A stretch of DNA of 64,000 nt from an uncultured Dehalococcoidia bacterium (GCA_964617695.1 CAZTYW010000001.1:11684-75683), one strand, 5' to 3'. Shown: positions 24,316 to 50,015, numbered from the stretch's first letter. Made by a program: numbers and translations. The notes: generated by a model from the letters alone, not told the origin.

Positions 24316-24729
24316 TCACAACAGCTCCATTAGCTGGATCAGGGTGCCGTGAGCCAATTGGGGGCACACAAAGACGAACTTCACCCTGCCAAAGCTAGCT
24401 TCGACCTCAGTTGGCGTGTCGTCTACAAACTGAATGCCCTTCGCTTTCAGTTGGCTCACCACTTCTTCTATGTTCGATACTTTCAGCGTCATGTGCTGAA
24501 GACCTTCGCCGTGTTTTTCGATGAACCTTGCTACGGGTCCGCCAAGAGAGACGGGTTCAATCAACTCAAGCATCACATCGCCCATGTAGCAAACGCCGTA
24601 CCTCATCCCATGAGGTTCATATGAGTCTCCTTCTCCTGGCGTCAGTCCAAAAACATCCGTGAAGAGTCTGGTTGCCTTTTCCAGGCTTCTGACCGCTATG
24701 CCGACTTTCAACAGTCCTTCTATTGCCAC
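24316..24729 (-). CDS. VOC-family protein, methylmalonyl-CoA epimerase-like
   Basis: GIAVRSLEKATRLF.DVFG......EP.......V......LELIEP......ARF.EKHGEG.QH...KV..I. GTG 24729 is preceded by GGAGAGG. The longer ORF overlaps moaC. Confidence 0.6.
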   Translation of the reverse strand: MAIEGLLKVGIAVRSLEKATRLFTDVFGLTPGEGDSYEPHGMRYGVCYMGDVMLELIEPVSLGGPVARFIEKHGEGLQHMTLKVSNIEEVVSQLKAKGIQFVDDTPTEVEASFGRVKFVFVCPQLAHGTLIQLMELL

Positions 24730-24745
24730 GCTGTCACCTCTCCAG

Positions 24746-25201
24746 TCATTCGAACACGACCGCGCCGCTCTTGCCGCCACTCTTCTTGACCAGCCGAATA
24801 CCGCCTATCTCCATGCCTGCATCCACGCCTTTGCACATGTCGTAAATAGTCAGAGCGCTTATGGCCACGGCGACGAGGGCCTCCATCTCCACTCCTGTCT
24901 TGCCCGTGCTTCTGGCCGTAGCCGTTATCTGCACGCTGCTATCCTTCTCCTCATCCACAAGAAACTCCACCCTGACCTCGGTAAGCAGCAAAGGGTGACA
25001 CAGCGGCAGTAGCTGTGGCACCTTCTTCGCCGCCATGATGCCCGCTACCTGAGCCGTGGCAAGAACATCGCCTTTGGGCAACGCGCCCTGGCGAAGCAAC
25101 TTCAACGTCGACGGCTGCATCCTCACCCAGCCCTTTGCCACTGCCTCTCGCTCGGTGTCAGCTTTCTGGCTTATGTCAACCATGTGGACGCGGTCTTCCA
25201 T
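24746..25201 (-). CDS. moaC: cyclic pyranopterin monophosphate synthase
   Basis: HMVDIS.K..T.R.A.A.G.V.M...T......[21 protein letters not shown]...[11 protein letters not shown]. Confidence 0.92.
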
Positions 25202-25210
25202 CCTGCCAGT

Positions 25211-26191
25211 TCATCCTCCTACCTGAGTCATGAATCGTCCTTGTGGCACAGATCCCTGTGCCACCCGATGACCTTCCGGTTTCGCAGCTATGGCCTCCAG
25301 TATCAGGTGTCCTACATCCTCAGAAGACGCCCCCCGCCGTAGGGCACATTTCAGGTCCAACTCCTGATCAGACAGAAGACAAGGTAGCAGCTTCCCATCG
25401 GCCGTAAGCCGCAGCCGATTGCACCTGAAGCAAAAATGCTCGCTGACCGGGGTTATGAAGCCAATAGTGCCCTCTGCACCTGGAAGACGATAGTACTTGG
25501 CTGGGCCGACGCCCACCAGCGGCGAGCAAGGCTCGAGGTCTCCCAGGGGAGCAAGCCTCTGCCACATCTCCTCAGCAGATACGAATTCCGGAACAGCCGT
25601 GATTCTCTGTATGAGGGGCATCAGCTCGATGAACCGCACATGCCAACCTTCCCTGCTGAGCCAGGCGAAGTCGACGAGTTCATCATCGTTGAGACCACGC
25701 ATGACCACCACGTTTATCTTGACTGGCTCGAGTCCTAGCCTCCGGGCCTCCGTAATGCCTGCCAATACTTCGGGCAGCCTGTCATATCCCGTGACTCGCT
25801 CAAACCTTTCCCTCCTCAGGCTATCGAGACTGACGTTCACGCGCCTCAGACCCGATTCTTTCAGCTCCGCTGCCTGGCCTTTGAGCAGTACGCCATTCGT
25901 GGTCAGGGAGATGTCATCGATCCCATCGATTGACGCCAGCATCCTCACCAGACTCGCCAGGCCCAGCCTCACCAGCGGTTCGCCACCGCTGATCCTAACC
26001 TTGCCAATGCCCACCTGCGCCGCCGCCTGGACCACCAGAGCGATCTCTTCATAAGTGAGGAGGTCCGAATGTTGCTTCAGCCGAATCCCATCAGCAGGCA
26101 TGCAGTACACGCAGCGAAGATTGCAGCGGTCAGTAACGGAGATACGCAGGTAATTCACAGGACGCTGGAATGAATCCGACACTCCACTCAC
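25211..26191 (-). CDS. moaA: GTP 3',8-cyclase (radical SAM)
   Basis: LRISVTDRCNLRCVYCMP (CxxxCxxC), ..RISGGEPLVR.., C-terminal FCFRCNRLRLTADGKL..CL and terminal GG. Confidence 0.93.
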   Translation of the reverse strand: MSGVSDSFQRPVNYLRISVTDRCNLRCVYCMPADGIRLKQHSDLLTYEEIALVVQAAAQVGIGKVRISGGEPLVRLGLASLVRMLASIDGIDDISLTTNGVLLKGQAAELKESGLRRVNVSLDSLRRERFERVTGYDRLPEVLAGITEARRLGLEPVKINVVVMRGLNDDELVDFAWLSREGWHVRFIELMPLIQRITAVPEFVSAEEMWQRLAPLGDLEPCSPLVGVGPAKYYRLPGAEGTIGFITPVSEHFCFRCNRLRLTADGKLLPCLLSDQELDLKCALRRGASSEDVGHLILEAIAAKPEGHRVAQGSVPQGRFMTQVGG

Positions 26192-30747: not shown

Positions 30748-31002
30748 TCAATACTGTTGCCACTTTTCGCGCAACAAGTCCAGAATGTCTTTCAAATAGA
30801 AGTAGCGTACGAGTTTCCTCTCGGTACCCCTTTCCCTGTACCCGGCCTGCTCCTTGGTGGTAAGGCGTTCGAGCACCCGGACGGTCTGATTATAGCTGTG
30901 ATTCACCCCATTGGCAATCTCAGTCGTGGTGCTTTCAAAATGCCCTGCCAAGGCCTCCTGCCTCAAGAAACTCAGCACAGCTTGTTCATTATCCTGTACC
31001 AT
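30748..31002 (-). CDS. small winged-helix DNA-binding protein (84 aa)
   Basis: AVLSFLRQEALAGHFESTTTEIANGVNHSYNQTVRVLERLTTKEQAGYRERG looks like an HTH plus wing. Divergent from AOR1 and 224 nt upstream of ftsA. Confidence 0.5.
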   Translation of the reverse strand: MVQDNEQAVLSFLRQEALAGHFESTTTEIANGVNHSYNQTVRVLERLTTKEQAGYRERGTERKLVRYFYLKDILDLLREKWQQY

Positions 31003-31222
31003 AACTCAAGTCCTATGATATGACATACGTTGTGGCCTGTGGTACACCATATCACGCATGCTATGATCTGTCAAGTGCCTAAACGGCTCATGAAATTGAG
31101 CCAACCGTCCATTGGAATGCCCAACCCCCTGTCTGCCCACCTGCACAGCCGTGCCAATGGCCGTTCTCTCTCAACAGACCAGGAGTCAACAGAGAAAACA
31201 CGACGACATTTCGCGGTTCGAC

Positions 31223-31251
31223 AGGCACGAACGGCAGAAACATGCGATAAT
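31223..31251 (+). promoter_or_regulatory. promoter-like element upstream of AOR1 (AGGCACG-N16-GATAAT)
   Basis: AGGCACG at 31223-31229 and GATAAT at 31246-31251, 27 nt before the ATG. The same architecture occurs upstream of AOR2. Confidence 0.35.
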
Positions 31252-31277
31252 CTAAACCGAGTCTAGGAGGAAAAGCC

Positions 31278-33227
31278 ATGACCTTCGGATACGCCGGGAA
31301 GCTCCTGAGACTGGACCTATCTGCAGGAAGCATCTCCAGGCTCTCCACGCCTGACTACGCAGACGATTTCCTGGGCGGCAGAGGCCTTGGCGCCAAGGTC
31401 TACTGGGACGAGGTGCCGCCCGAGGCAGGCGCGCTCGACGCTGAAAACAGGTTGGTATTCGCCACCGGTCCCCTGGCTGGCTTGCCCACGATAGGCGCTT
31501 CACGCTGGCAGGTCTGCGGCAAGTCCCCGGCCCACCGCCCGAAGCAGTTCTCGTACTGCAATCTGGGAGGAAGATGGGGCGCTGATCTGAAGTTTGCCGG
31601 CTATGACGCCATTGTGGCCCATGGCAAATCGGAGAAACCCGTCTATCTCCTCATCGCCAAGGACGCCATCGAAGTCAGGGACGCCTCTGCCCTGTGGGCC
31701 CAGGGCGCCATTGAGACCAGGCAGACCCTCAAAAGGGAACTTGGCGACTTTGCCAGAGTAGTCGCCATCGGTCCCGCTGGCGAAAACATGGCGGCGATGT
31801 CAACGTTGCTTGCCGAGAACGATGCCAGCGGTTCAGCAGGCATGGGGGCGGTTATGGGTTCGAAGAAGCTCAAGGCCATCGTAGTACTCGGCGGTGATCG
31901 GAAGCCCGTGGACGTTGCCCACCCTGAAAGGCTGCGAGAGTTGATTCGGTACTACCGCGGACTGCGCAGAATCACTCTGAGATCGTCATCCTACCGATTC
32001 TCAACCGATAAGGTGCCCAGTCTCAGCCATACCAAGATGAGGCGGATGGATCCGTGCTACGGGTGCCTGGGATGCTCAAGGAGGTCATACCAGGCGGACG
32101 ACGGCAGTAAGGGCAAGTTCATGTGCAACTCGGCCATGTTCTATCAGCCCTGGGCCGTAAGCTATTACGGCGAATGGAATGACGTGCCCTTCCACGCCAC
32201 CAGGCTTGTCAACACATACGGCCTGGACTCAAAGGCGGTTGACCGCATGATCAGTTGGCTCCACAGCTGCTATGAAGCCGGCATCCTGACCGAGGAGAAC
32301 ACAGGGATACCACTGTCGAAGATAGGCAGCCTGGCATTCATAGAGACTCTGGTCCGGAGACTGTCGTTTCGTCAGGGCTTCGGAGATATCCTGGCCAGAG
32401 GTCTGGAAGAGGCTGCAAAGTCCATCGGTCCTGCGGCCGAAGAGCATGTCGGCAGAATCGGTTATGTAGCCATGCCGGGGTACAAAGACATCTATGGCCC
32501 AAGACTCTACATCACCAATGCCTTGTTCTACGCCATGGAACCCAGGATACCAATACAGCAACTCCACGAGGTGGGGACCCTGATCCCTAAATGGGTGTCT
32601 TGGGTCCGCGGGACTCCAGGCGCCAGTGCTTCATCCGAAGTGGTGCGTAGAATAGCCGAGAGGTTCTGGGGCGGGGAGCCGGCGGCCGATTTCTCCACCT
32701 ACGAGGGCAAGTCGCTGGCGGCCAGGATGATACAGGACCGACAGACCGCCAAGGAGTGCCTGATTCTTTGCGACTACGTCTGGCCGATTACGGACCTGGA
32801 GACAACCGACGACCATGTCGGCGATCCTACTCTGGAGAGTCAGATCCTATCCGCCGTCACCGGAAAGGATGTGGATGAAGACGGACTATACGGCATAGGC
32901 GAGCGAGTCTTTAATCTGCAAAGAGCGATACTGGTCAGGGAGGGCCACAGGGGACGGGACTTCGATCGCCTACCCGAATACTGCTTCACCGAGCCGCTGC
33001 AATTCGACTTCATGAACCCGGACTGCCTGGTGCCAGGCAAGGACGGAGAGGTGGTCTCTCGCAAGGGTGCGGTTCTCGACAGGAACGAATTCGAGCGGAT
33101 GAAAGACCGTTACTACCAGATCAGGGGATGGGACGTGACAACTGGTCTTCAAACCCGGGAATCCCTGGAGAGGCTGGGGCTGAGGGAGGTTGCCGATGAC
33201 CTCGAGCGCAGAGGCCTGCTTGCGTAG
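31278..33227 (+). CDS. aldehyde:ferredoxin oxidoreductase family protein (W/Mo-pyranopterin, [4Fe-4S]), paralog 1
   Basis: AOR N-domain FGYAGKLLRLDLS...FLGGRGLGAKVYWDEV...GPLAG......SRW.VCGKSP; Cys cluster DPCYGCLGC...KFMCNS; later ECLILCDYVWP; C-terminal YYQIRGWD..TGLQTRESLERLGL. AGGAGG RBS. Confidence 0.85.
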   Translation: MTFGYAGKLLRLDLSAGSISRLSTPDYADDFLGGRGLGAKVYWDEVPPEAGALDAENRLVFATGPLAGLPTIGASRWQVCGKSPAHRPKQFSYCNLGGRWGADLKFAGYDAIVAHGKSEKPVYLLIAKDAIEVRDASALWAQGAIETRQTLKRELGDFARVVAIGPAGENMAAMSTLLAENDASGSAGMGAVMGSKKLKAIVVLGGDRKPVDVAHPERLRELIRYYRGLRRITLRSSSYRFSTDKVPSLSHTKMRRMDPCYGCLGCSRRSYQADDGSKGKFMCNSAMFYQPWAVSYYGEWNDVPFHATRLVNTYGLDSKAVDRMISWLHSCYEAGILTEENTGIPLSKIGSLAFIETLVRRLSFRQGFGDILARGLEEAAKSIGPAAEEHVGRIGYVAMPGYKDIYGPRLYITNALFYAMEPRIPIQQLHEVGTLIPKWVSWVRGTPGASASSEVVRRIAERFWGGEPAADFSTYEGKSLAARMIQDRQTAKECLILCDYVWPITDLETTDDHVGDPTLESQILSAVTGKDVDEDGLYGIGERVFNLQRAILVREGHRGRDFDRLPEYCFTEPLQFDFMNPDCLVPGKDGEVVSRKGAVLDRNEFERMKDRYYQIRGWDVTTGLQTRESLERLGLREVADDLERRGLLA

Positions 33228-33308
33228 GCGTACGACTTGACCGCCCGATCAGACCAGCCATACAATCTGGGCAAGTGGCAAACAGGACCGTCCGAGCCGG
33301 ACTACCTG

Positions 33309-33325
33309 TGCGCCAATTTGGCGCA
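33309..33325. promoter_or_regulatory. perfect 17-bp palindrome TGCGCCAA-T-TTGGCGCA between AOR1 and the following SDR
   Basis: Read directly. It ends 27 nt upstream of the SDR ATG. The 12-nt core GCCAATTTGGCG recurs at 55920-55931. Confidence 0.4.
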
Positions 33326-33351
33326 ATGGGATTACGTTAGGAGGCGAGTGA

Positions 33352-34110
33352 ATGAAATCGATGTTTGACCTCACCGACAGGGTGGCCATCGTAACCGGGG
33401 CCGGCAGGGGGATAGGGAAAGCCTTATCGCTGGGGCTGGCCCACTTCGGCGCAAATGTAGTTGTTGCGGCTCGAACAGCAGGCGACGTTGACAAGACTGC
33501 GGACGAGATTCGCTCTCTGGGCAGAAGGGCCCTGGCTGTGCCTGCTGACGTGCAAGAAAAAGAGCAGGTGGCCGATATGGTGGCCAGGACCCTGGCAGAG
33601 TTCAACAGGATTGACATTCTGATCAACAACGTGGGCGGCGGTCCTCGGAGAGCGGCCTTTGACCAGGGCCAGAGGTTCTGGGATGCCATCATGCGGCTGA
33701 ACCTCACCACCACCCTGTTATGCAGCAAGGCAGTGGCACAGGTGATGAAAGAGCAGGGCAAAGGGAACATAATAAACATCGCTTCCGCAATCGGGCGAGG
33801 CAATATGCCCGAGTTCTCAGCCTACGCGGTTTCAAAGGATGGGGTGATCACCTTGACGGCTCGCCTGGCCATCGAATGGGCCAAAGACAACATTCGGGTC
33901 AACGCCATAGCTCCGGGCTTTGTGGCGACTGAAATGGCTGCCGAGTGGTTCAAGACAGACCCGGACTTGAGCCAGGAGATGAAGAGGATTCCTATGGGTC
34001 GGCCGGCCAAGCCGGAGGACCTCATTGGCGGAGCGATCTATCTTGCTTCAGACGCTTCTGAATACGTTACGGGCAAGACGCTTTACATCGACGGCGGGCT
34101 TTTCCACTAG
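33352..34110 (+). CDS. short-chain dehydrogenase/reductase (SDR-A)
   Basis: RVAIVTGAGRGIGKAL, NNVG, S..YAVSKDG (YxxxK), PMGR...PEDL.G...YLASDAS.YVTG. TAGGAGG RBS. Confidence 0.85.
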   Translation: MKSMFDLTDRVAIVTGAGRGIGKALSLGLAHFGANVVVAARTAGDVDKTADEIRSLGRRALAVPADVQEKEQVADMVARTLAEFNRIDILINNVGGGPRRAAFDQGQRFWDAIMRLNLTTTLLCSKAVAQVMKEQGKGNIINIASAIGRGNMPEFSAYAVSKDGVITLTARLAIEWAKDNIRVNAIAPGFVATEMAAEWFKTDPDLSQEMKRIPMGRPAKPEDLIGGAIYLASDASEYVTGKTLYIDGGLFH

Positions 34111-34208
34111 TCGTCTGAGAGCGAGAAGCGTGAGGTATGGGGTTCATCAGGGCCCGCTATTCTACTCATTCGAGGCGCTATAGCTCAAAGCCAGCCCGTT
34201 TGCCAACC

Positions 34209-35009
34209 CTACCACATTACCAACCCCCCGCTGACGCTGATGGTCTGGCCGGTGAGAAAAGAAGCACGTTCAGAGGCCAGGAACAGCACGCAGTCTGCTA
34301 TGTCCTCTGGCTTTCCCAGGCGCCTGAGAGGCCAGTACTTCATCGCCTTTTGAAGCACGTCAGAGCTATAGGTCTCATATCCCCATTTCTTCCAGAAGCT
34401 TTCCTGCCCGACATGGTCGGGACTATCCGGAACAATCCAGCCTGGCGACACAACGTTGACGTTTATCCCATGGCGACCCAACTCCCAGGCCAGCGCCCTC
34501 GAAAGGGCGATGACCCCTCCCTTGGCCCCACCATAGACAGCCAGGTTGATTGCCCCAAACCCGGACTGCCCCGAAGCTGAGGCGATGTTGACGATCTTGC
34601 CGTATTTGCGTCCAATCATATGATCGACAACCCCTCTGACGCAGTTGATCACACTCCAGTAGTTCAGCCTTATCTCCTTGTCCCACTCATCCCTCGGCTT
34701 CTCCATAAATGGCCGGTTGCGCGGCGTACCACCAGCATTGTTGACCAGCACGTCTATGTTGCCAAAAGTCTGCAGAGTCTCGTTCACCGTCGCCTGCACC
34801 GAGTCCCAATCAGTCACGTCCGTCCTGACAAACACCGCCTTGCCACCCAGCCGGTTCGCCTCATCCACCACCCTGCACCCCTGCTCCGCGTCTACCTCAG
34901 CATTTACGATATTTGAACCTTCCCGGGCAAAGCCCAGGACGATGCCCCGCCCGATATTGGAGCCTCCGCCCGTAACGATGACTGTCTTACCAGCCAAACC
35001 CAGGTCCAC
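34209..35009 (-). CDS. short-chain dehydrogenase/reductase (SDR-B)
   Basis: GKTVIVTGGGSNIGRG, NNAG, S..YGGAKGG, LGKPEDIA..V.FLAS..ASF.TGQ. I chose the GTG at 35009, preceded by AAAGGAGAG; the longer ORF to 35171 overlaps the upstream gene. Confidence 0.82.
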   Translation of the reverse strand: MDLGLAGKTVIVTGGGSNIGRGIVLGFAREGSNIVNAEVDAEQGCRVVDEANRLGGKAVFVRTDVTDWDSVQATVNETLQTFGNIDVLVNNAGGTPRNRPFMEKPRDEWDKEIRLNYWSVINCVRGVVDHMIGRKYGKIVNIASASGQSGFGAINLAVYGGAKGGVIALSRALAWELGRHGINVNVVSPGWIVPDSPDHVGQESFWKKWGYETYSSDVLQKAMKYWPLRRLGKPEDIADCVLFLASERASFLTGQTISVSGGLVMW

Positions 35010-35029
35010 TCTCGCTCTCCTTTCGGGAC

Positions 35030-35590
35030 TTATTCCTCTATCCTGAACTCCCACTGGCAGGCGACCTCGTCTGGCCCTGGGCGAGGAGCCACCTTGAGAG
35101 GCTTGACCTGGATGGCCGGATTGACAGCGGCAGCGTATGCTTTCATGCCCTCGAATTCGAGGACCTGGCACGTCTGGGCTATCCGCTCCGGGTTATCTCT
35201 CTCCAGGGCTGCCAGCGCCGGACATTCGAACACGGTTAGTATGGCGTGATTCCTGTTCTTGAGGTCAAACTCGTACCTGTACAGGTCCTGCGCGAAAGAC
35301 CCGATCAGTTGACACGTCTTCGCATAGGCCTCCACGTCATTCCCTCGAATATTTGCCGCCTCCATCGCCCATTTCATCTCGTACTTGCCTATTCTTGTCC
35401 AGTTCGCCAGCAGGCACTCGAACGCAACTTCATCACCCAGCCTGTTGCGAACCTGCTCTTGCCAGTAGACATCCAGCACCAGCAACTCCCTGCAATACGC
35501 CTTCAGCAGCTTCGCCAATACGTCCTTGGAGAAGTCTTCATACCTGACATTGGGCACGAACTTCCCGCTGTAGTCCCTCAATTCCTGCAT
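35030..35590 (-). CDS. uncharacterised 186-aa protein, tandem paralog 3 of 3 (three invariant Cys)
   Basis: MQELRDYSGKF...EDFSK...NHAILTVFEC...ER...TCQVLE...NPAIQV..LKVAPR.....EVACQWEF. ATG 35590 is preceded by GGAGAGGAG. The 61-aa upstream extension of the ORF is low-complexity and absent from the paralogs. Confidence 0.7.
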   Translation of the reverse strand: MQELRDYSGKFVPNVRYEDFSKDVLAKLLKAYCRELLVLDVYWQEQVRNRLGDEVAFECLLANWTRIGKYEMKWAMEAANIRGNDVEAYAKTCQLIGSFAQDLYRYEFDLKNRNHAILTVFECPALAALERDNPERIAQTCQVLEFEGMKAYAAAVNPAIQVKPLKVAPRPGPDEVACQWEFRIEE

Positions 35591-35748
35591 CCGATTCTCC
35601 TCTCCAGTACCGTTTACCGAAACCCCTCCGAGCCCCTCATCTCCTGACTCGTCCGCGCGCCTCCGTTCCGTCCCGTGTCCGGTGTGATCAGCAGTCACCA
35701 GCCCGATCGCAGCAACATCCACGGCACGACTCCGTCGTGCGCCGCAAT

Positions 35749-36306
35749 TCACTCCCCCAACTTCAACTCCCACTGACAGGCAATCTCTTCCTGACTCTGG
35801 CGTGGGGGCAGCTTCAAGGCTGTCACCTTTATCCTGGGATTGATGAGATACTTCCTTATCGCTGCTTCTTCCAGTTCATAGCAGATCGGCTGTATCATCT
35901 CCGGGGCTTCCCTTTCGTAGTATATGAGCGAGCGGCACTGCGTTATGGTCATGATAACGTGGTTCGGACTCTTGATGTCGTACTCCACCGGATACAGCGG
36001 CCCAATGTTGTTGTCCAGAGGCAGTTGGAGACATTTGAGGGAATCCAGCACCGTGTTTAGCTGAATGCCGGCAATCTTGGGATACCGCGGATTGACCTGC
36101 GCCGCCACCTTCTCCCAGGCTTCGAGATTGCATTCGTTCGCCACATCGAAACCGCATCTCTTCTTTACGGCATCGTACCAGATGCCGGCCATACGAATCC
36201 ATGCAAACTGCCACACCGTCATGAGCTTCAGCAGGAATTCCTTGGAGAAATCCTCGAACGTCAGGTCCGGCTTGAATGGGCCGCTATAGTCGTTTAGCTC
36301 CGTCAT
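35749..36306 (-). CDS. uncharacterised 185-aa protein, tandem paralog 2 of 3
   Basis: MTELNDYSGPF...EDFSK...NHVIMTITQC...ER...ICYELE...NPRIKVTALKLPPRQSQEEIACQWEL. ATG 36306 is preceded by AAAGGAAAGGGGGG. Confidence 0.7.
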   Translation of the reverse strand: MTELNDYSGPFKPDLTFEDFSKEFLLKLMTVWQFAWIRMAGIWYDAVKKRCGFDVANECNLEAWEKVAAQVNPRYPKIAGIQLNTVLDSLKCLQLPLDNNIGPLYPVEYDIKSPNHVIMTITQCRSLIYYEREAPEMIQPICYELEEAAIRKYLINPRIKVTALKLPPRQSQEEIACQWELKLGE

Positions 36307-36367
36307 ATCACAGCCCCCCTTTCCTTTACTTGACCTTTCCTGGCACATACCTTGTCCTATCCAACGG

Positions 36368-36931
36368 CTAGTCCCCCAGTCTGAACTCCCATTGGCAGGC
36401 GATCTCGTCGGCGCTTTTGCGTGGTGGCAGTTTCAGCGCCCTTACCTTAATCCTGGGATTGAACAGGCCGGCGGCTGCCTGAAAGCCCTCCACATCGAGC
36501 ACCTCACAGGCGTGCTTCTGCATCTCCCTCTCTCCGTGTCTCTCATAATACTCAAGCCCGAGACACCGCCTGATGGTCAGTATGCCGTAGTTCTTGTCCT
36601 TGAGCTCACACTCAAACTCTGGGAATATCGCCCCGCCGCCCGGATCTGTTTGAATGAACTTGAGAACACTGGCAACGTCATCGCCCCATATGTTGAGCGC
36701 CTCCCTCACCCGACCCACCTCCAATGCAGTCTCTCGCCTCCACACCTCCGCGTCCAGCTCGCGAGCCATGTCCTCACCAAACCTCTCCCTGATGAGTGAG
36801 TACCAGATGCCGTCCAGACCTACGTAGAGCTTCCCCGCTGCCTGCCAAAGCCGCACGAGTGCCGCTTTTGAGAAGTCATCCAGCCTCAGATTCCGGCGGA
36901 ACTCTCCGCTGTAGTCCTCCAAGTCTTCCAT
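36368..36931 (-). CDS. uncharacterised 187-aa protein, tandem paralog 1 of 3
   Basis: MEDLEDYSGEF...DDFSK...NYGILTIRRC...ER...ACEVLD...NPRIKVRALKLPPRKSADEIACQWEF. ATG is preceded by GAAGGAGG. Confidence 0.72.
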   Translation of the reverse strand: MEDLEDYSGEFRRNLRLDDFSKAALVRLWQAAGKLYVGLDGIWYSLIRERFGEDMARELDAEVWRRETALEVGRVREALNIWGDDVASVLKFIQTDPGGGAIFPEFECELKDKNYGILTIRRCLGLEYYERHGEREMQKHACEVLDVEGFQAAAGLFNPRIKVRALKLPPRKSADEIACQWEFRLGD

Positions 36932-37214
36932 GTTCGACCTCCTTCAGCAATCCTATTGCCTCTCTGGTCTTGCCGGCGGGGCACGCGCAGCCGGATGGCC
37001 ATCACGCTGCACCTGCGCCGAGACACCTGTAGCACAAGGAAAAACGGCCGCCACCTGTTACTACGGCGGCAGCCCAGCCATCATAGCCCAGAAGCCTTAG
37101 ATCTGTGACTCTGCGCCCCCTGGTTTGCCAGGGTTTGCCTTTTTCACCGCATCGCGCCAAGCTTATCTTGGCCTTTCCTGGACTTCTTATAACCCAGCCG
37201 CAACGGACAAGTCA

Positions 37215-37244
37215 AGGCACGGTCAGCAACAGCAAAGGTATAAT
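37215..37244 (+). promoter_or_regulatory. promoter-like element upstream of AOR2 (AGGCACG-N17-TATAAT)
   Basis: AGGCACG at 37215-37221 and TATAAT at 37239-37244, 60 nt before the ATG. It parallels the AOR1 element. Confidence 0.4.
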
Positions 37245-37304
37245 TCACAAGGAAGGTCTATTCAACCACAGCGGTTGACATGAAGCACCGCGGAAGGAGT
37301 GTAG

Positions 37305-39221
37305 ATGAAGCCTTTCGGATACGCCGGGAAGATACTCAGAGTGGACCTGTCTTCGAGACAGGTAGCCGATTCCCCGACCCTGGACTACAGCAATACGTTT
37401 CTGGGCGGAAGGGGCATCGCCACCAAGATATATTGGGATGAGGTGCTACCCGAAGTCAAGGCGTTAGATGCCGGCAACAGGCTGATAATGGCTGTCGGCC
37501 CGCTGGCCGGCATCCCCGTCCTGGGCGGCTCAAGATGGACCGTCTGCGGCAAGTCACCTCTCCGAACCCCTGAACACTTCTCGCACTGCAATCTCGGCGG
37601 ACGGTGGGGTGCTGAACTCAAGTTCGCCGGCTACGATGCGGTTGTCTTCCAGGGTAGATCGGAACAGCCGGCGTACCTCTTCCTGCACGATGGAGTTGCA
37701 GAGCTGAAGGATGCCTCAGCCCTGTGGGGCAAGGGCGCCATCGAGACCCGTGACATCCTCAAGAGAGAGTTGGGCGGCTCGGTGAAAGTGGTAGCTATCG
37801 GCCCCGCCGGGGAAAACCTGGTGACTATGGCAAGCCTGCTGGCAGATAACGATGCCAGCGGCTCCGGCGGCCTGGGTGCTACCATGGGGGCCAAGAGGCT
37901 AAAGGCAATTGCAGTCCAGGGGACGGCCAGGGGAGTAAGGGTAGCTCAGCCTGACAGACTGAGCCAGATCACCAGGTACTTCCGTGGACTGGGCAAAGGC
38001 GTCTTCACTGCGTGGGGAACGGACTACCTGCCGACGGGACCCAAAGTCAAGAAAGACCCATGCTATGGCTGCCTGGGCAACTGTCTCAGGATGACGTACG
38101 GCACCGACGACGGCAAAAGGGGCAAGTTCATGTGTCAGTCAGCCATGTTCTATCAACCGTGGTCTTACCGGTATTACGGACAACAGAATGACGTCCCCTT
38201 CTACGCCAACAGGGTCTGCGACGACTACGGGCTGGACACATGGGCAATAGACGTAATGATTGCCTGGCTGAACAGGTGCCGCAAAGCCGGCATCCTGACC
38301 GACAACATTGCGGGCCTTCCCCTGTCCAAACTGGGCACTCCCGAGTTCATTGAGACCCTGGCCAGACAAATATCCCTGAGGGAAGGCTTCGGGGACATCC
38401 TGGCGGACGGGCTGCCCAGGGCTGCAAGCACGGCCGGGGCCGAGGCGACGCAGCAAATCAAGCACGGCGACCCCTACGAGCCCAGGCTATACATCACCAC
38501 GGCACTGCTGTGGGCCATGGAGCCAAGAGAGCCAATACAGCAGCTGCACGAGGTGGGACTGCCTGTGGCCCAATGGGTAAGCTGGGTCAAGAAGGTTGAA
38601 GGCGCCTACGTCTCAAGCGATGTGATTAGAGCCATTGCCAGGAGATTCTGGGGAAGTGAAATTGCCGCTGATTTCTCGACGTGCGAAGGCAAGGCCCTGG
38701 CAGCAAAGATGATCCAGGACCGCGAGTATGCCAAGGAATGTCTTGTCCTCTGCGACTGGGTATTCCCCGTCATGGACACCAGAAATAGCGAGGACCATGT
38801 CGGTGATCCCACTCTGGAAAGCCAGATACTGTCTGCCGTCACAGGAAACGAAACGGACGAACGGGCGCTCTATAGCACGGGGGAGACCGTCTTCAATCTG
38901 CAGAGGTCAATACTGGTCAGGGAGGGTCACAAAGCCAGGGAAGATGACAGACTTCCTGATGACTGGCACAGCGTGCCGCTGGCCAAGGGAATCACGAACG
39001 TCGAATGCCTGGTACCCGGCAAAGACGGAGAGGTGACATCCAGGAAGGGCGCGGTGGTCGACAGGGCAGAATTCGAAAAGATGAAAGATGAATACTATCG
39101 GCTGCGCAGGTGGGAGGTGGCTACCGGCCTGCAGACCAGGGATAACCTGGAGGGCCTGGGGCTGGGAGAGGTGGCCGCGGACCTGGAACAAAGAGGGCTC
39201 ATGGCAAGTCAACAGGAATAG
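37305..39221 (+). CDS. aldehyde:ferredoxin oxidoreductase family protein, paralog 2
   Basis: Aligns with AOR1 along its whole length (FGYAGKILRVDLS...FLGGRGIATKIYWDEV...SRWTVCGKSP...NLGGRWGAELKFAGYDA...DPCYGCLGNC...KFMCQS...ECLVLCDWVFP...YYRLRRWE..TGLQTRDNLEGLGL). GGAAGGAG RBS. Confidence 0.85.
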   Translation: MKPFGYAGKILRVDLSSRQVADSPTLDYSNTFLGGRGIATKIYWDEVLPEVKALDAGNRLIMAVGPLAGIPVLGGSRWTVCGKSPLRTPEHFSHCNLGGRWGAELKFAGYDAVVFQGRSEQPAYLFLHDGVAELKDASALWGKGAIETRDILKRELGGSVKVVAIGPAGENLVTMASLLADNDASGSGGLGATMGAKRLKAIAVQGTARGVRVAQPDRLSQITRYFRGLGKGVFTAWGTDYLPTGPKVKKDPCYGCLGNCLRMTYGTDDGKRGKFMCQSAMFYQPWSYRYYGQQNDVPFYANRVCDDYGLDTWAIDVMIAWLNRCRKAGILTDNIAGLPLSKLGTPEFIETLARQISLREGFGDILADGLPRAASTAGAEATQQIKHGDPYEPRLYITTALLWAMEPREPIQQLHEVGLPVAQWVSWVKKVEGAYVSSDVIRAIARRFWGSEIAADFSTCEGKALAAKMIQDREYAKECLVLCDWVFPVMDTRNSEDHVGDPTLESQILSAVTGNETDERALYSTGETVFNLQRSILVREGHKAREDDRLPDDWHSVPLAKGITNVECLVPGKDGEVTSRKGAVVDRAEFEKMKDEYYRLRRWEVATGLQTRDNLEGLGLGEVAADLEQRGLMASQQE

Positions 39222-39230
39222 CGAGCGTGT

Positions 39231-39941
39231 TTACACCCGGGCGGTTGCTGTGTCGAGCACGTCGGTTTCCGCACCGTTCGGAAGTATCATTCCGTTGCCG
39301 AGGCGGACAACCCTGTCTGCTGTGCGAGCCAGGTTGGCATCGTGGGTCACTATGATGAGTGTGGCACCCATTTCCCTGTTCAGGTGACACAACAGATCGA
39401 CTATCTCCTCGCCGGTTGCAGCGTCGAGAGTGCCCGTCGGCTCGTCCCCGAGCACCAGCGGTGGATTGTTGGCTACGGCACGGGCTATTGCCACCCTCTG
39501 CCTTTCCCCACCCGACAGCATGGCGGGTCTATGATACAACCTGTCCTTCAGACCCACCGCTTCCAGTAGCTCAGCAGCTCTCCTCTTCCTGTCTTGGGGC
39601 TTCATTCCGGCGGCACACATTGGAAGCTGAACGTTTTCGAAGGCATTCAGTGTCGGAATTAGATTGTGCAGTTGAAACACAAACCCAACCTTCTGCGCCC
39701 TGAAACGGTCAAGGTTCGAGATACTGGATACGTCGCTGCCATCAACGCACACCCTGCCTCTTGTGGGCGTGTCGAGAGCGCCGATGATGTTGAGTAGCGT
39801 GGTCTTGCCGCTGCCCGAGACTCCCAGCACAGAGACAAAAGCACCTCTCTCGACGCACAGGTCAACCTCTCTAAGTGCAGCCACTCTACCTCCAAAGTAG
39901 GTCTTGGACAGGCCCTCGATCTGCACCATAACACTACTCAT
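39231..39941 (-). CDS. ABC transporter ATP-binding protein (MacB/LolD-like)
   Basis: Walker [11 protein letters not shown]-loop, signature [14 protein letters not shown], Walker [16 protein letters not shown] 39941 overlaps the permease stop. Confidence 0.9.
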
Positions 39942-41046
39942 GGCACAGCGCCTCCGCCGGTGACAGACGGCATGCGCGGTAAGCCGGCAATGCTCCACCA
40001 AGCAGACCAAGGAGCAGCGCCACGGCCAAACCAAGAAGGAAAGCATATCCGCTGAAAGCGGGGCTGATCAGACCCTTGACCGAGGGCAGAGACGTGATCA
40101 GGCAGATAGCGGCTACTCCGAGCAGGCTGCCGATAACAAAACCCGCCAGGCTGAGCAGCATCGACTCACCGAGAATCATCTTCAGAATGTTGAACCGACT
40201 CCAACCTGCGGCTCTCAATATTCCGATCTCTCTCATCCGCTCCCAGAAAGACATCGACATGATACTGACTACTCCTATGCCTCCCATGATAACCGCAATC
40301 GAGTAGAAGACCCAGGCAGAGGTATCCACAACTTCAATGCTGGACAAAGCCTCCAGAAGCCGGGAGGGAGGTGCAACGCTCAGAAAAAGCTGTCCCGATT
40401 CTATGCGGTTGATCACGTCCTCCTCGTCTGCGCCCGGTTCCAGGTAGATGGCGACCAACGTCACCTTTCCTTCTCGCCCAGCCACTTCCTGGGCTTCCGC
40501 CAGGGAGATCATGCCACCGCCGTCGAGGTAGGCACTCCCTGTTGAATACACTCCCGCCACCCTGAATTCTTCACCTGACTCCAATTCGAGCAGACTGCCC
40601 AACTGAAGACCAAGGTTGCTCCTTGCCCCTTTCCCCAGCAACACCTCAGCCGGATTCTCAAGACGCCTTCCCTCCACGATCTGTGCGTCACTCAGATAGA
40701 GGTCGCTATCTTCGGGAGAGGCACCGAGCAGGTTGAAAGAGGACATCTCAGGAAGTCTGACGCTTGTCACCAGAAAACCCGTGGCACTTTCCACCCCTTC
40801 ATAGGCCTCGACATCCTCCACGCTCGAATCGGGAATTGAACCGCTGGTGAGACCAGCCAGCCCCCTCTGAGTGGCTATCAGGTCGGCCTGGGTCAACTCG
40901 GCACCGGCGCCCAGCTCCTTCTTGAGATCGGTGGCCAGCGCAAAGATAGCAACGATCACTGCCACGCTAACGCCGACACCCAGGGCCGTAAGCCAAGTCC
41001 TGCTACGGCGCGCCCACAGGTTCTTCAATACTAACGTAAGAAGCAT
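39934..41046 (-). CDS. ABC transporter permease, FtsX/MacB type
   Basis: N-terminal TM (LKNLWARRSRTWLTALGVGVSVAVIVAIF), a large extracytoplasmic domain of about 230 aa, then three C-terminal TMs with the FtsX-like ...REIGILRAAGWSR..I. Confidence 0.8.
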   Translation of the reverse strand: MLLTLVLKNLWARRSRTWLTALGVGVSVAVIVAIFALATDLKKELGAGAELTQADLIATQRGLAGLTSGSIPDSSVEDVEAYEGVESATGFLVTSVRLPEMSSFNLLGASPEDSDLYLSDAQIVEGRRLENPAEVLLGKGARSNLGLQLGSLLELESGEEFRVAGVYSTGSAYLDGGGMISLAEAQEVAGREGKVTLVAIYLEPGADEEDVINRIESGQLFLSVAPPSRLLEALSSIEVVDTSAWVFYSIAVIMGGIGVVSIMSMSFWERMREIGILRAAGWSRFNILKMILGESMLLSLAGFVIGSLLGVAAICLITSLPSVKGLISPAFSGYAFLLGLAVALLLGLLGGALPAYRACRLSPAEALCHE

Positions 41047-41061
41047 ACTCTCTCTGCGAGC

Positions 41062-41103
41062 TATTCAAAAACTGTGGGGTGGCAGTCGAACTCCACCCCA
41101 CAG
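41062..41103 (-). terminator. intrinsic terminator between the 801-aa gene and the ABC permease
   Basis: Minus strand: CTGTGGGGTGG-AGTTCGACTG-CCACCCCACAG (perfect 11-bp stem) followed by TTTTTGAATAG. Confidence 0.7.
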
Positions 41104-41135
41104 CAGTGAAAGACGTAGTTTTACAGGGGGAACGC

Positions 41136-43541
41136 CTAGGCAGCAGTTGCCCGGGCCCGCCGCAACAGGACAACCACCAAGGCCGCCAACAGCAAGCCAC
41201 CGACTATGCCGCCAATCAGGGCCCAGTTCATTCCAGCAGACTGCACTGCCACCAGGCCAAAGTATGAGAAACCAGCGGATATGCCTTCGAACACGGCATT
41301 ATCGCCCTGGTAGCCGACGAAATTGGTGATCAACACCTGGGCCGTGTCATCGCTGACGCGGAATACCCTGATATTCTTCACCCCGTATTCATCGGCCCAA
41401 TCGCGTCCCACTTTCAGAGTTACTACTGCATTCTCCAGATTGTTGCTGGACAGATTGGTCCCATCCACTCTGACTACGTAAGCTACCTCCAGTATGGTCA
41501 GCCCGGCCTCGGCAGCCGCTGACTCAAACGCAGCCTGGACCTCCTCTGGCGCGTTCTTCAGCCCGGTTATCTGAATCTTGGCACCGGCAGGTGCATCCGT
41601 GACGTCTACATTCATGCCTACTGCACACAGGCCTATCTGAGCATCCAGGTCGCTGAAGTCCAACAGTTGGTCTTCAATCTCCACCTTCCCGCTTCCCTCC
41701 GCAACCTCCTGCTCCACCAGTGGCGGCGGCATCAGATATGCTGCCCCGGTTACCTGCACATCCGTATCTGTCGCAGAAAAAGCAAACCCGAGGGCAAAGC
41801 GCAGAGGAATGATACTGCAGAGGAACTCAAAATCTGCTAGCTCGTCCTCGGTCATCTCCGCGGTGGGTGCCGAGGCTACTGCAGCCTCAAGTGCATCTGT
41901 CAGATTCAGATATACTATACCCAGGCTGTCCTCAGGCAACAGACCCAGCACGCCCTCAAATTGCTCGGCTTCGTCCAGCGAGGGAACGCTGCCCTGGCTA
42001 GCAGCCACCGCGGCCTCCAGAGCAGCAGTGGTCGAGCCAATCACCAGGTAATCGGTGCCGTCAACGTCCAGGAACAGCCAGCCCGGTGACGCACCGTCCG
42101 CCGCTATTCCATCGTTTGAAACCAGCGTGGCGTCGACCCCACCGACGGTGGTCGGCGACGTTTCGAGCAGGTCCGGCTCGCCTTCCGCCTCGGACTCTAT
42201 AATCGTGTTGAGGGCGCCGATTATGGTGTTGAGGTGCGCCTCAACCGCACTCGGCTCGTCGACCTCGAACATGATGAGGACGTCAAGCGTCTGCGGTTGC
42301 ATGCCCTCTCCAAAGTCAACGGGAAGCAGGGCGAACGAGAACTCGCCTGTCATCCAACCGAAGACATCGTTGTCTATGTCCACGCCAAGCTCGGTAGCAA
42401 TGATGTCGAGCATCTCTTCGAAGGTCTCTGCCTCCGGGGTAGCCTCCCAGTTGTCACTTATTATGCTCCGCACCTGCTGCCAGTAGGCATTCACGTCTTG
42501 CCACGATGCATAGAGCAGTGTGCCCTCTGGCACGATTCCCGCGCTCTTCAGCGACGCGGGTTCCGTGCTGGGCAATGTCACTCCCTCAGGAAGAGGACTG
42601 GTGGCAGTCACGCTTATACCACTGCCCGTAACGCAAAGGGACGCCGCCAAATATGGGGGAACGTAGCCGCCGAGCATCTCAACCAGACCTCCGAGCCCAT
42701 CCTGCTCCCCCTCAGGCGGAACAATCTCTAGAGAGTTCTGCCATATCTCTCCCAAGTTCAGGTAGACCATCCCCACCCTGTCTGCGGGGAGGGCAGCCTG
42801 GGCCTGCTGGAAGTCGGCGTCGTCGGCCAGCGACCCGGACAGACCAGCATCAACTATCAAGTCAAGACAGCTCTCCAGCAGGTCCGCGTCACGGGCCACC
42901 GAAACCAGAATGTACCGGTCGGTGAAAGCCCAGTAAGTCCCCGTCCCTGGGAAACCATAAAGAGTGTCGACTCCACGGTAACTCGTCAGATCATCCTTGG
43001 TAGGAACAGCCGGCAGTCCTGCTTCATCAGCCAAGAAAGGCAGGAGCTCTCCGAAGACGAAGTCATCCGAAGCTGCCTTGTCCGTAGTCCCGATGAACCA
43101 TATGGCGTCAGGATCTTCTACACTGGCGTTCGTGAGGCCTCGAACCGCTATGCCCATCTCTGGGCCCAGCCAGGTGAATATGTCCTCAATGTCGATACCG
43201 TTCTCTTCCTCGGACTCCGCAAGAAATTCCGCCCATTTGGCTTTCACATTCGGGTTCTGCCACCAGTAGTTGAGGAGACCCAGCATCTTGGTCATCTGGT
43301 CCTCACTGGGGGCAAGATTGACCGTCAGGTAGAGTTCAACATCATTGGGAAGGAACTGCGCTGTCTCCTCACCCTGGTGTTGATCCGCAGCCAGAGCAGG
43401 AGCGCCGATGCCCGCCAGGCTCGCAAGGAGCGACACCACGACTAGTAACGGCAGCGCTCTCCAGGAGATTGATCGGCGAAAGCTTCCCCGACGTCCTGTC
43501 CTGGGTCTTTCAGAAGAAACGACTTCCATGAGCGTATTCAT
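41136..43541 (-). CDS. 801-aa acidic secreted protein with a C-terminal membrane anchor (candidate cell-surface protein)
   Basis: N-terminus has an RR-containing n-region, hydrophobic core LPLLVVVSLLASLAGIGAPALA and an ALA|AD site. The body is long and D/E-rich. The C-terminus is a TM (WALIGGIVGGLLLAALVVVLL) plus a basic tail RRARATAA. The pre-anchor segment ...VTLKVGRDWADEYGVKNIRVFRVSDD...FEGISAGFSYFGLVAV resembles archaeal pre-PGF-type domains (from memory, unverified). Confidence 0.6.
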   Translation of the reverse strand: MNTLMEVVSSERPRTGRRGSFRRSISWRALPLLVVVSLLASLAGIGAPALAADQHQGEETAQFLPNDVELYLTVNLAPSEDQMTKMLGLLNYWWQNPNVKAKWAEFLAESEEENGIDIEDIFTWLGPEMGIAVRGLTNASVEDPDAIWFIGTTDKAASDDFVFGELLPFLADEAGLPAVPTKDDLTSYRGVDTLYGFPGTGTYWAFTDRYILVSVARDADLLESCLDLIVDAGLSGSLADDADFQQAQAALPADRVGMVYLNLGEIWQNSLEIVPPEGEQDGLGGLVEMLGGYVPPYLAASLCVTGSGISVTATSPLPEGVTLPSTEPASLKSAGIVPEGTLLYASWQDVNAYWQQVRSIISDNWEATPEAETFEEMLDIIATELGVDIDNDVFGWMTGEFSFALLPVDFGEGMQPQTLDVLIMFEVDEPSAVEAHLNTIIGALNTIIESEAEGEPDLLETSPTTVGGVDATLVSNDGIAADGASPGWLFLDVDGTDYLVIGSTTAALEAAVAASQGSVPSLDEAEQFEGVLGLLPEDSLGIVYLNLTDALEAAVASAPTAEMTEDELADFEFLCSIIPLRFALGFAFSATDTDVQVTGAAYLMPPPLVEQEVAEGSGKVEIEDQLLDFSDLDAQIGLCAVGMNVDVTDAPAGAKIQITGLKNAPEEVQAAFESAAAEAGLTILEVAYVVRVDGTNLSSNNLENAVVTLKVGRDWADEYGVKNIRVFRVSDDTAQVLITNFVGYQGDNAVFEGISAGFSYFGLVAVQSAGMNWALIGGIVGGLLLAALVVVLLRRARATAA

Positions 43542-43933
43542 GTGCCCGTATCCCCTTTCTGATCGATAGCATTAATCAAACAGGCCATCGCAGAGCCTGG
43601 TACCATCCCGCAGAAGAACCATTCGCCATTCACGGCGACCGATTCTGCCTCACCAGGACTGCCACAGTGATGAGAATCAATCTCGAACACAAGCCTGGTT
43701 TGTATCACAAGAACCGCGGGGCTGTCAAGTGCTTCGCGGGATGCCACAAAGCTACGAGGTACCTGCGTCAGGCTTTCGCTACCTTTGGTCGGAATTTCAA
43801 GCCGTTTGGCTACCGCGGCCGCTGAGTTGCCGTTCACGTCACGGACGACCGGCGATCCCGACCCGGCACCACGCGCTATCGCAGGCGGATGGAAGCTAAG
43901 CTGGAACATGGGCAGGTGTTTGACGCACAGCAT
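43538..43933 (-). CDS. hypothetical protein (131 aa), doubtful
   Basis: Only open frame in the 420-nt gap upstream of the 801-aa gene. Its stop overlaps that gene's ATG (ATGA). I recognise no motif and see no clear SD. Confidence 0.2.
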   Translation of the reverse strand: MLCVKHLPMFQLSFHPPAIARGAGSGSPVVRDVNGNSAAAVAKRLEIPTKGSESLTQVPRSFVASREALDSPAVLVIQTRLVFEIDSHHCGSPGEAESVAVNGEWFFCGMVPGSAMACLINAIDQKGDTGT

Positions 43934-43960
43934 GTCGCCAACTAAACTTGGTAGCCAGAA

Positions 43961-48390: not shown

Positions 48391-48413
48391 CCTGAATACA
48401 AACGGGTCTTGCC

Positions 48414-48461: not shown

Positions 48462-48511
48462 GTGTGTCCTGCGAGCACAAAATCAGGGGAGGCAGCTGGT
48501 ACCCCAGCGGT

Positions 48512-49984: not shown

Positions 49985-50015
49985 GGCGCTCTCCCTCCAA
50001 GTTGGTTGATGCTGC

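Follow-up and report, generated by a model that had tools for sequence, protein, structure and literature searches.

What chemistry is encoded where two paralogous members of the aldehyde:ferredoxin oxidoreductase (AOR) family enclose two short-chain dehydrogenases/reductases (SDR-A and SDR-B) and three small cysteine-containing proteins (P1, P2, and P3) on the chromosome of an uncultured Dehalococcoidia bacterium? The genes lie at 30.7–39.2 kb of a stretch of 64,000 nucleotides (GCA_964617695.1, CAZTYW010000001.1:11684-75683), which we call the window and to which all coordinates without a contig label (L018 and the like) refer. Few subsurface bacteria are as abundant as uncultured Dehalococcoidia, whose carbon metabolism is known mainly by inference from annotation. 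An earlier interpretation of this DNA, made without database searches (hereafter the sequence-only reading), took the cluster for a duplicated alcohol/aldehyde/acid redox module. Such a module now seems unlikely, because both AORs have a cysteine at the metal-ligand position of BamB and YdhV and have lost Glu313 of the classical enzyme PfAOR. We propose instead, with a confidence that stops a little short of an even call for the explanation as a whole, that the genes form a catabolic set, conserved yet modular, of an anaerobic Dehalococcoidia-type member of Chloroflexota.

First, what kind of enzymes are the two AORs? AOR1 (31278-33227, plus strand, 649 aa) and its paralog AOR2 (37305-39221, plus strand, 638 aa) share 60% identity and 75% similarity along their entire length, and the motifs from which the sequence-only reading had aligned them are present in both. 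The family assignments made earlier for the AORs and the SDRs were likewise confirmed by Pfam: AFOR_N scores 216 bits with AOR1 (E = 4.6e-64) and 218 bits with AOR2 against a cut-off of 29.8, AFOR_C scores 177 bits (7.3e-52) and 174 bits against a cut-off of 27, and the SDRs match adh_short. At least 120 clusters at 90% identity are at least 60% identical to AOR1, and source annotations name such relatives "aldehyde:ferredoxin oxidoreductase." Five cysteines are invariant in 49 members of this subclade (C260, C263, C266, C283, and C498 in AOR1 numbering), four of which, with C498 as the fourth, occupy the [4Fe-4S] ligand positions and align with the cluster cysteines of PfAOR, BamB, and YdhV. 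The first three are spaced CxxCxxC in AOR1 and CxxCxxxC in AOR2 (32052-32075 and 38058-38084); both spacings coexist in a single related contig (L018:8771 and L018:12212), which suggests two conserved subtypes. Judging from these ligand positions, from cofactor-site motifs (YGLDS/T and E/D-x-L-x-L-C), and from the nearby moaA and moaC, AOR1 and AOR2 are predicted to be cytoplasmic W- or Mo-bis-pyranopterin/[4Fe-4S] enzymes.

It is the fifth cysteine, C283 in AOR1 and C277 in AOR2, that speaks to their chemistry. Situated in a KFMC motif, this candidate metal ligand aligns with BamB Cys322 (MMKC), both by HMMER and in a MAFFT alignment with the BamB fragment P0164, and with Cys336 (GGNTC) of YdhV from Escherichia coli. 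According to a 2025 review, the Cys322/Cys336-type residue is a protein ligand to W or Mo that no other AOR/WOR clade possesses; the two clades that have it, those of BamB and YdhV, lack the second-shell residues of the aldehyde-oxidizing enzymes, and the ligand singles them out as the one part of the AOR/WOR family that does not consist of aldehyde oxidoreductases (PMC12096430). In the window clade, Glu313 of the PfAOR EYE motif is replaced by an invariant Tyr289 (FYQ). The region of PfAOR Thr243 is shortened in AOR1 and of low confidence in its structural model, and the equivalent of His448 is uncertain, as H430 sits seven residues past a conserved arginine, compared to four in PfAOR. Because the BamB/YdhV-type cysteine is present and Glu313 is replaced, the aldehyde role is doubtful, and AOR1 and AOR2 are probably not aldehyde enzymes. 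We infer that five sulfur ligands, namely four dithiolene sulfurs and the cysteine, would fill the first shell of the metal, so that aldehydes could not be bound and hydroxylated there and the inner-sphere chemistry of the classical AORs would be impossible.

The same two residues bear on the explanation closest to the sequence-only reading, in which AOR1 and AOR2 would be ordinary ferredoxin-dependent aldehyde oxidoreductases for two substrates, the SDRs would supply or remove the aldehydes from alcohols, and the small-protein triplet would be an AOR accessory. This agrees with the names that relatives carry in source annotations and with the retention of PfAOR Tyr427. Against it stand the invariant cysteine, a ligand absent from the aldehyde-oxidizing clades (PMC12096430), and the change of Glu313 to tyrosine; we regard it as an unlikely account, to which further evidence on both sides is added below.

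Phylogeny tells against aldehyde oxidation as well. In a neighbor-joining (NJ) tree of 377 columns with 200 bootstraps, the window clade groups with a sister clade of about 40% identity (support 100), the two are sister to BamB plus YdhV (support 74.5), and all of these are split from PfAOR, the 9mqx enzyme, and FOR (support 100). We count this tree as supporting evidence rather than proof of the placement. Members of the sister clade (L047-L060; for example L048:9998-11929 and L054:9995-11905) are 39–43% identical to the window AORs and keep the BamB/YdhV-type cysteine (LRGC). They usually adjoin a protein of about 310–335 aa that combines a C-terminal 2x[4Fe-4S] domain with some 260 N-terminal residues lacking a Pfam match, and they never adjoin DUF6125. 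A BamB-seeded search gave mostly truncated or frameshifted fragments, of which P0164 (376 aa) was the sole usable one.

The fold matches AORs as well as it matches BamB (template modeling [TM] scores of 0.74–0.78), a point in favor of the aldehyde oxidoreductase alternative. The AlphaFold2 model of AOR1 has a predicted local distance difference test score (pLDDT) of 89.5, with low values in the cysteine-containing loop, and Foldseek retrieved all solved AOR-family structures at TM 0.71–0.78 without separating BamB from the classical AORs. BamB (4z3w) is the top PDB match in a single-sequence search, while the N-terminal domain matches all family members about equally and, with the clade profile, classical AORs and BamB score within about 10% of each other.

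The cluster thus considered is most like a stripped-down BamB or YdhV system, yet it belongs to neither. With BamB, of class II benzoyl-CoA reductase, the window AORs share membership of the AOR/WOR family, four [4Fe-4S] cysteines, a length of about 650 aa, the cysteine at the position of the W ligand Cys322, and the loss of second-shell Glu313; BamB also has the highest query-normalized TM to the AOR1 model (0.78). However, the two are only about 26–34% identical (26% in the Foldseek structural alignment; 34% to the 376-aa P0164), and BamB pairs with YdhV rather than with the window clade in the NJ tree. The BamB element QEMAIHDEKWH (Glu251, His255, Glu257, and His260), which provides a Zn site and a proton conduit, lies within some 40 inserted residues that AOR1, AOR2, and all relatives lack; AOR1 residues 220–256 contain one histidine and one glutamate. 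Nor are there bamC-I genes, for the FeS, HdrA-like, and NuoF-like subunits, in the cluster or elsewhere in the 64-kb window. Orthology to BamB is ruled out by the missing Glu/His insertion and the missing bamC-I genes.

YdhV, an E. coli protein of unknown function with a molybdenum-bis-molybdopterin (Mo-bis-MPT) cofactor, shares the ligand position equivalent to Cys336 and a C-terminal LC(D/N)xVWP motif around the fourth FeS cysteine. It differs in being just 30% identical and in its 700 aa with several insertions that the window AORs lack. The NCBIfam model for YdhV, PRK09849, scores 305 and 289 bits with the window AORs against a cut-off of 868, and the YdhV operon partners YdhY and YdhX (ferredoxins), YdhU, YdhW, and YdhT have no counterpart in the window cluster; on these three grounds of identity, model score, and operon partners, orthology to YdhV is ruled out too. 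The classical AORs (PfAOR of Pyrococcus furiosus 1aor, Clostridium autoethanogenum AOR 9g7j, and FOR 1b25) resemble the window proteins in their two Pfam domains, a fold similarity of TM 0.74–0.75, the conserved Tyr427, and cofactor motifs such as YGLD(T/S). They differ in having no protein ligand to W, where the window AORs have an insertion with the invariant cysteine, in their EYE motif with Glu313 compared to FYQ, and in falling on the opposite side of the split with full support.

Second, what are the three small proteins that the AORs enclose? P1 (36368-36931, minus strand, 187 aa), P2 (35749-36306, minus strand, 185 aa), and P3 (35030-35590, minus strand, 186 aa) had been described as an uncharacterized cysteine-containing triplet. 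They are indeed without known function, but they belong to a named Pfam family, DUF6125 (PF19620), with scores of 57.3, 50.5, and 36.0 bits, respectively, against a gathering cut-off of 27, and all 44 aligned homologs of the three also match PF19620. We found no mention of DUF6125 or PF19620 in the literature searched, and no member with a known function. At 50% identity the family divides into about 1,000 clusters; it is present in several copies per genome, and all of its source-named matches come from Chloroflexota. P1, P2, and P3 are 39–41% identical to one another, and an NJ tree of 65 members assigns them to three deep subfamilies; therefore, they did not arise by recent triplication. 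Most copies that are linked to AOR and SDR-B genes (those of L018, L045, L034, and L035) share the branch of P3, while relatives of P2 occur in tandem arrays and beside OYE-type genes. YdhW and YdhT were rejected as DUF6125 relatives, with hhalign probabilities of 0.3% and 0.1%.

Within the family, D6, Y7, W64, K91, Q94, T119, C123, C142, K167, C179, and W181 are invariant and Glu182 is nearly so; the invariant N-terminal DYSG motif lies outside the Pfam match, which starts at residue 20. Many members are fused two-domain proteins of 380–440 aa (for example, about 386 aa at L001:15149-16309), and the only fusions found are of DUF6125 to DUF6125, none to other domains. These fusions, together with the adjacency of paralogs, suggest that the proteins work as dimers. 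Four to six paralogs stand head to tail in arrays at L008:823-4398, L014:1435-3779, and L016:56-2452.

The fold offers a further clue. The AlphaFold2 model of P1 (pLDDT 95.9) predicts helices followed by a four-stranded sheet, and its Foldseek matches, which are weak but coherent (TM 0.38–0.52, E 0.01–0.1), are Bet3/TRAPPC3, the V4R domain of MopR/PoxR, and H-NOX; no match to V4R, MopR/PoxR, or Bet3 was found at the sequence level. HNOB, V4R, and ATC_hydrolase have been described as similar domains, and V4R (the phenol-sensor domains of MopR/PoxR) and ATC_hydrolase share a cluster of three conserved cysteines (Galperin and colleagues, PMC5847659). DUF6125 is like them in its three conserved cysteines (C123, C142, and C179), which may form a Zn site. 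Similarity to ATC_hydrolase (PF14196) reaches a best E value of 3.3e-5 and is seen below threshold in 27 of the 44 members; with P1 at 15.2 bits (E = 0.04) and a gathering score of 28.1, it supports a tie at the superfamily level only.

Considering these fold relatives and the diversification of the paralogs, we favor a dimeric small-molecule-binding or substrate-presenting role for DUF6125. A role as hydrolase or isomerase is nearly as likely. In the corresponding account of the whole cluster, the AORs and SDRs would act as in our proposal while the DUF6125 proteins, as relatives of L-ATC hydrolase, would open or rearrange a ring or thioester made by the reductase. Its attraction is that the nearest sequence family is ATC_hydrolase (27/44), whose founding member cleaves a thiazoline ring (PMC5847659), that many invariant polar residues accompany the three cysteines, and that DUF6125 genes stand in line within catabolic operons between reductases, SDRs, and CoA transferases. 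Yet every PF14196 match stays below the gathering score, the structural neighbors are binding or scaffold domains rather than enzymes, and the arrays at L008, L014, and L016 have no other enzyme gene between their four to six paralogs. Taken as an account of the entire cluster, this combination appears possible and, in our judgment, rather unlikely.

Third, the two SDRs. SDR-A (33352-34110, plus strand, 252 aa), a FabG-like classical SDR encoded in the same direction as AOR1 and 3′ of it, matches adh_short and adh_short_C2 in Pfam with E values of about 1e-56 to 1e-60. SDR-B (34209-35009, minus strand, 266 aa) is the last gene of the minus-strand operon that begins with P1. Both score above threshold with adh_short (190 bits for SDR-A, 169 bits for SDR-B) and exceed the cut-off of 215 bits of the broad NCBIfam "subfamily" model NF005559 (234 and 221.5 bits), and neither reaches any NCBIfam equivalog cut-off, including that of BadH (193 compared to 431). 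The best PDB matches of SDR-A are generic FabG, gluconate dehydrogenase, and uncharacterized SDR entries; overall, the PDB and NCBIfam searches of the SDRs gave generic FabG-like matches only and no clue to the substrate. A third FabG-like SDR of 264 aa is encoded at 23381-24175 (plus strand), just beyond moaC, adjoined by a glyoxalase-family gene at 24316-24780.

Does this combination of genes recur, or is it an accident of one genome? Among one-genome-per-species entries of GTDB, 39 DUF6125 loci were found, all in metagenome-assembled genomes of Dehalococcoidia/Chloroflexota and often several per genome. Loci were screened by tblastn with a panel made up of the window proteins and of neighbor proteins seen at DUF6125 loci. 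Within 5 kb of the seed, DUF6125-seeded loci hold another DUF6125 gene in 13 of 38 cases, an SDR gene in 12 of 38, and a member of the window AOR subclade in 5 of 38. A reciprocal set of AOR-seeded loci, not chosen for DUF6125, was drawn from a metagenome scan and from the longest contigs among the homologs, with usable flanks required. Within 6 kb of a subclade AOR of at least 56% identity, an SDR was present at 8/9 loci and DUF6125 at 5/9, compared to DUF6125 at 0/5 usable loci of the 40%-identity sister clade; three of these five encode an approximately 330-aa protein that ends in a 2x[4Fe-4S] domain. At subclade loci the SDR is frequently an SDR-B ortholog, and SDR-B is the most conserved partner of the subclade: orthologs of 62–81% identity stand beside subclade AOR genes in L018, L034, L035, L042, L045, L063, L067, and L068.

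In all, the AOR, SDR, and DUF6125 families occur together in at least 11 independent contigs and in differing orders, such as P3-SDRB-SDR-AOR (L045), AOR-P3-SDRB-AOR (L018), P3-DUF-AOR-SDRB (L034 and L035), DUF-AOR-cyclase-SDR (L064), and DUF-SDRB-AOR (L068). The variation in order argues for selection on linkage rather than inherited synteny. That unrelated accessory genes came together by chance in a variable part of the genome, as one might suspect given that all three families are multi-copy in these genomes and that some AOR loci lack DUF6125, is accordingly very improbable: besides the recurrence in different orders, DUF6125 is present at 5/9 subclade loci and 0/5 sister-clade loci, and the approximately 55 kb of the window outside the cluster contain no DUF6125 copy. 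A clustering that is not random, as the module of the sequence-only reading implies, is borne out by the recurrence of AOR, FabG-like SDR-B, and DUF6125 in many Chloroflexota contigs; that reading had also named absent enrichment, or an unrelated housekeeping family for the triplet, as signs of chance, and what we find is recurring linkage and a family without known function. The triplet that it took for an accessory component is, however, not an AOR-specific accessory (an AOR at 5/38 DUF6125 loci; no DUF6125 at 4/9 AOR loci). The AOR–DUF6125 association is real and enriched, and it is neither exclusive nor obligatory.

The wider neighborhoods bear on several of the alternatives at once. DUF6125-seeded loci also hold OYE-type reductases, a DMSOR-type Mo enzyme, HGD-D with its activator, acyl-CoA dehydrogenases, and 2x[4Fe-4S] proteins. 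Relatives of the cluster have as neighbors CoA transferases, acyl-CoA dehydrogenases, enoyl-CoA hydratase, OYE-type reductases, FixABCX-like genes, 2x[4Fe-4S] proteins, and solute-binding proteins. For the aldehyde oxidoreductase alternative, the near-constant presence of SDR genes is favorable, whereas neighbors typical of CoA-ester rather than alcohol/aldehyde metabolism, and a DUF6125 family that is not AOR-specific, are unfavorable. As candidate electron partners, relatives encode a FixABCX-like set and the 330-aa proteins that end in a 2x[4Fe-4S] domain.

It is in this setting that DUF6125 might be thought of as an electron carrier or metallochaperone, a possible role and a less likely one than binding or catalysis. 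DUF6125 proteins would then be metal or Fe-S proteins, with three cysteines and a carboxylate as ligands, that serve ferredoxin-dependent reductases as electron carriers or cofactor chaperones, in place of the missing ferredoxin. The three invariant cysteines and the nearly invariant Glu182 would suit such a function; the partners (AOR, DMSOR-type enzymes with an Fe4S4 domain, HGD-D with its activator, and OYE with FeS) all need low-potential electrons; and the window cluster has no ferredoxin. The homologous three-cysteine cluster in MopR/PoxR structures, however, presumably holds structural Zn, DUF6125-bearing relatives (L018 and L004) also encode separate 2x[4Fe-4S] proteins, and such strong diversification of paralogs is unusual for electron carriers. 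We consider this account improbable.

Several individual loci illustrate the range of these arrangements. At L065:1-13971, FixABCX-like genes (ETF alpha, ETF beta, ETF-QO/FixC, and a small ferredoxin) immediately precede two AOR-subclade genes in tandem, after which come an OYE-type reductase, an SDR, DUF6125, and a family III CoA transferase; the FixABCX-like set is possibly an electron-bifurcating source of low-potential electrons. At L064:5426-10124, DUF6125, AOR (3 nt apart as called), a Cyclase (PF04199), and an SDR follow one another, flanked by two ADP-forming acyl-CoA synthetase-like genes and an OYE-type reductase. L018 (920-7956 and 13651-16590), the best-matching locus with two AORs, also encodes HpaB/4-hydroxybutyryl-CoA-dehydratase-family and methylmalonyl-CoA-mutase-like proteins, four approximately 335-aa proteins that end in a 2x[4Fe-4S] domain, a DUF7064/7065 protein, and a SnoaL-like protein, and looks like a large catabolic island. 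L067:5202-13911 shares with 36368-45424 of the window a common right flank (an AOR2 ortholog of 72% identity, an ABC ATPase, an FtsX/MacB permease, DUF3352, and a chorismate-binding enzyme). Its one DUF6125 gene is transcribed away from the AOR; AOR1, SDR-A, P3, and P2 are missing at that position, and an SDR-B ortholog (81%) lies about 5 kb away.

How might these parts work together? In the explanation that we favor, the AORs would pass low-potential electrons and protons to their substrate in a BamB-like, outer-sphere manner, without direct contact between metal and substrate. The substrate would be an unsaturated or aromatic acid or CoA thioester, and the FabG-like SDRs, SDR-B above all, would interconvert the hydroxyl and keto groups of adjacent pathway intermediates. 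The DUF6125 proteins, as V4R/ATC-hydrolase/H-NOX-like small proteins with a putative three-cysteine (probably Zn) site, would form homo- or heterodimers that bind a hydrophobic substrate or intermediate and hand it over to the SDR/AOR pair. P3 would be the dedicated partner of AOR and SDR-B, P1 and P2 having been recruited from subfamilies that serve other reductases, and electrons would come from a ferredoxin-type donor encoded elsewhere in the genome. A pathway of organic acids handled as CoA esters is suggested by the CoA transferases, acyl-CoA dehydrogenases, enoyl-CoA hydratase, and other such neighbors of the relatives, and anaerobic aromatic degradation has been proposed in the literature for these organisms.

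A number of observations weigh against this explanation. The AOR tree includes few taxa, was built by NJ only, and contains three PDB sequences rebuilt from alignment printouts. PfAOR second-shell Tyr427 is kept as Y406, nearly invariant in the subclade, which leaves aldehyde chemistry some probability, and no member of the clade has a known substrate, metal, or activity. The window cluster itself has no gene for a CoA ligase, CoA transferase, or hydratase. As for DUF6125, its fold matches are weak (TM 0.4–0.5, E 0.01–0.1), profile searches of the PDB gave no sequence-level match to any solved structure, and the invariant polar residues D6, Y7, K91, Q94, T119, and K167 would fit an active site no worse than a binding pocket. 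Furthermore, DUF6125 is missing within 6 kb at four of the nine AOR-subclade loci, and L042:2438-2536 keeps a 33-aa DUF6125 remnant, 76% identical to P1, between an AOR (67%) and an SDR-B ortholog (79%), which suggests gene decay and a dispensable DUF6125. Given these four loci and the remnant, DUF6125 is not an obligate subunit.

The gene calls on which the argument stands agree largely with those made before. All eight genes described earlier were located, fill the interval, and retain their places with three start codons moved. The minus-strand genes P1-P2-P3-SDR-B, from the first gene P1, which is divergent from AOR2, to the last, are present with their Shine-Dalgarno (SD) sequences as the sequence-only reading had it, and it is the starts of P2, P3, and SDR-B that had to be revised. 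P2 and P3 now begin further inward, at a conserved M-x-E-L-x-DYSG N-terminus that is common to the homologs and has an SD upstream. For SDR-B, the open frame extends over 34209-35171 (minus strand); because the SDR domain starts only at residue 62 of this open reading frame (ORF), and because a AAAGGAGAG SD stands upstream of the GTG at 35009, that GTG is most likely the start. A purine-rich SD lies 5–10 nt upstream of all eight genes, the weakest being that of an 84-aa ORF (30748-31002, minus strand).

This short ORF is present and divergent from AOR1, as reported before, whereas its label as a winged-helix gene rests on marginal matches: DnaD_N (E 0.11), TrmB (E 0.13), and an HTH_45-like local similarity, with no Pfam match at E ≤ 0.1, no significant NCBIfam match, and no homolog in any related locus by tblastn. 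It may encode a small winged-helix regulator, and its membership in the module is doubtful. Genes for 91-aa HTH_45 (PF14947) winged-helix proteins lie a few kb from the AOR genes at L063:12406-12681 and L067:2334-2609, and these proteins match the 84-aa ORF locally, over 25 residues only.

Beyond the cluster, moaC (24746-25201) and moaA (25211-26191) are confirmed by Pfam at about 5 kb upstream, where they had been placed before, and are separated from it by Ham1, FBPase, ftsZ, and ftsA genes. No ferredoxin or flavoprotein gene lies within the cluster, again in keeping with the sequence-only reading, and tblastn with the protein panel gave no Fer4-type match in the whole 64-kb window. The remainder is made up of core chromosomal genes, among them those for ribosomal proteins, SecY, EF-G, FtsZ/FtsA, and ArgRS and the trp genes. 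The left end of the window (24-3214) is occupied by genes for trehalose synthesis (GT20, trehalose phosphatase, and TreT-like). An ORF of 642 aa at 4193-6121 (plus strand) has no Pfam match and lies where GC skew and neighbors favor the minus strand; it may be novel or a spurious call. Farther right, 47257-54237 codes for a HEAT/PBS-lyase repeat protein, for a 7TM-GAF histidine kinase with a LuxR-type response regulator, and for a member of the GH3 family (acyl-acid amido synthetase-like).

Finally, what would this mean for the family and for these organisms? Many AOR/WOR clades are still hypothetical (PMC12096430), and one more uncharacterized clade is in itself unsurprising for that reason. 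What is new is that a large, Chloroflexota-restricted AOR clade probably sits in the cysteine-ligated branch and is probably mis-annotated as aldehyde:ferredoxin oxidoreductase, that this clade is linked to a specific SDR and to DUF6125, and that DUF6125 recurs next to several different anaerobic reductases. To our knowledge, BamB is the only tungsten enzyme that dearomatizes a ring without ATP, and the candidate cysteine ligand places the window AORs next to it. One may go further and suppose, though we find it doubtful, that the clade is a third functional type within the BamB/YdhV branch, a stand-alone low-potential reductase of an aromatic or otherwise hard-to-reduce substrate, and that DUF6125 dimers are a new class of partner, presenting substrates or catalytic, shared among anaerobic AOR-, OYE-, DMSOR-, and HGD-D-type reductases of Dehalococcoidia. 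Finding the AOR substrate would add a reaction to the very small set of cysteine-ligated W/Mo-pterin chemistries and might help to explain what E. coli YdhV does. Similarly, with about 1,000 representative clusters, apparently confined to Chloroflexota and found beside four families of reductases, DUF6125 is a family for which an assigned role would annotate many catabolic islands at once.

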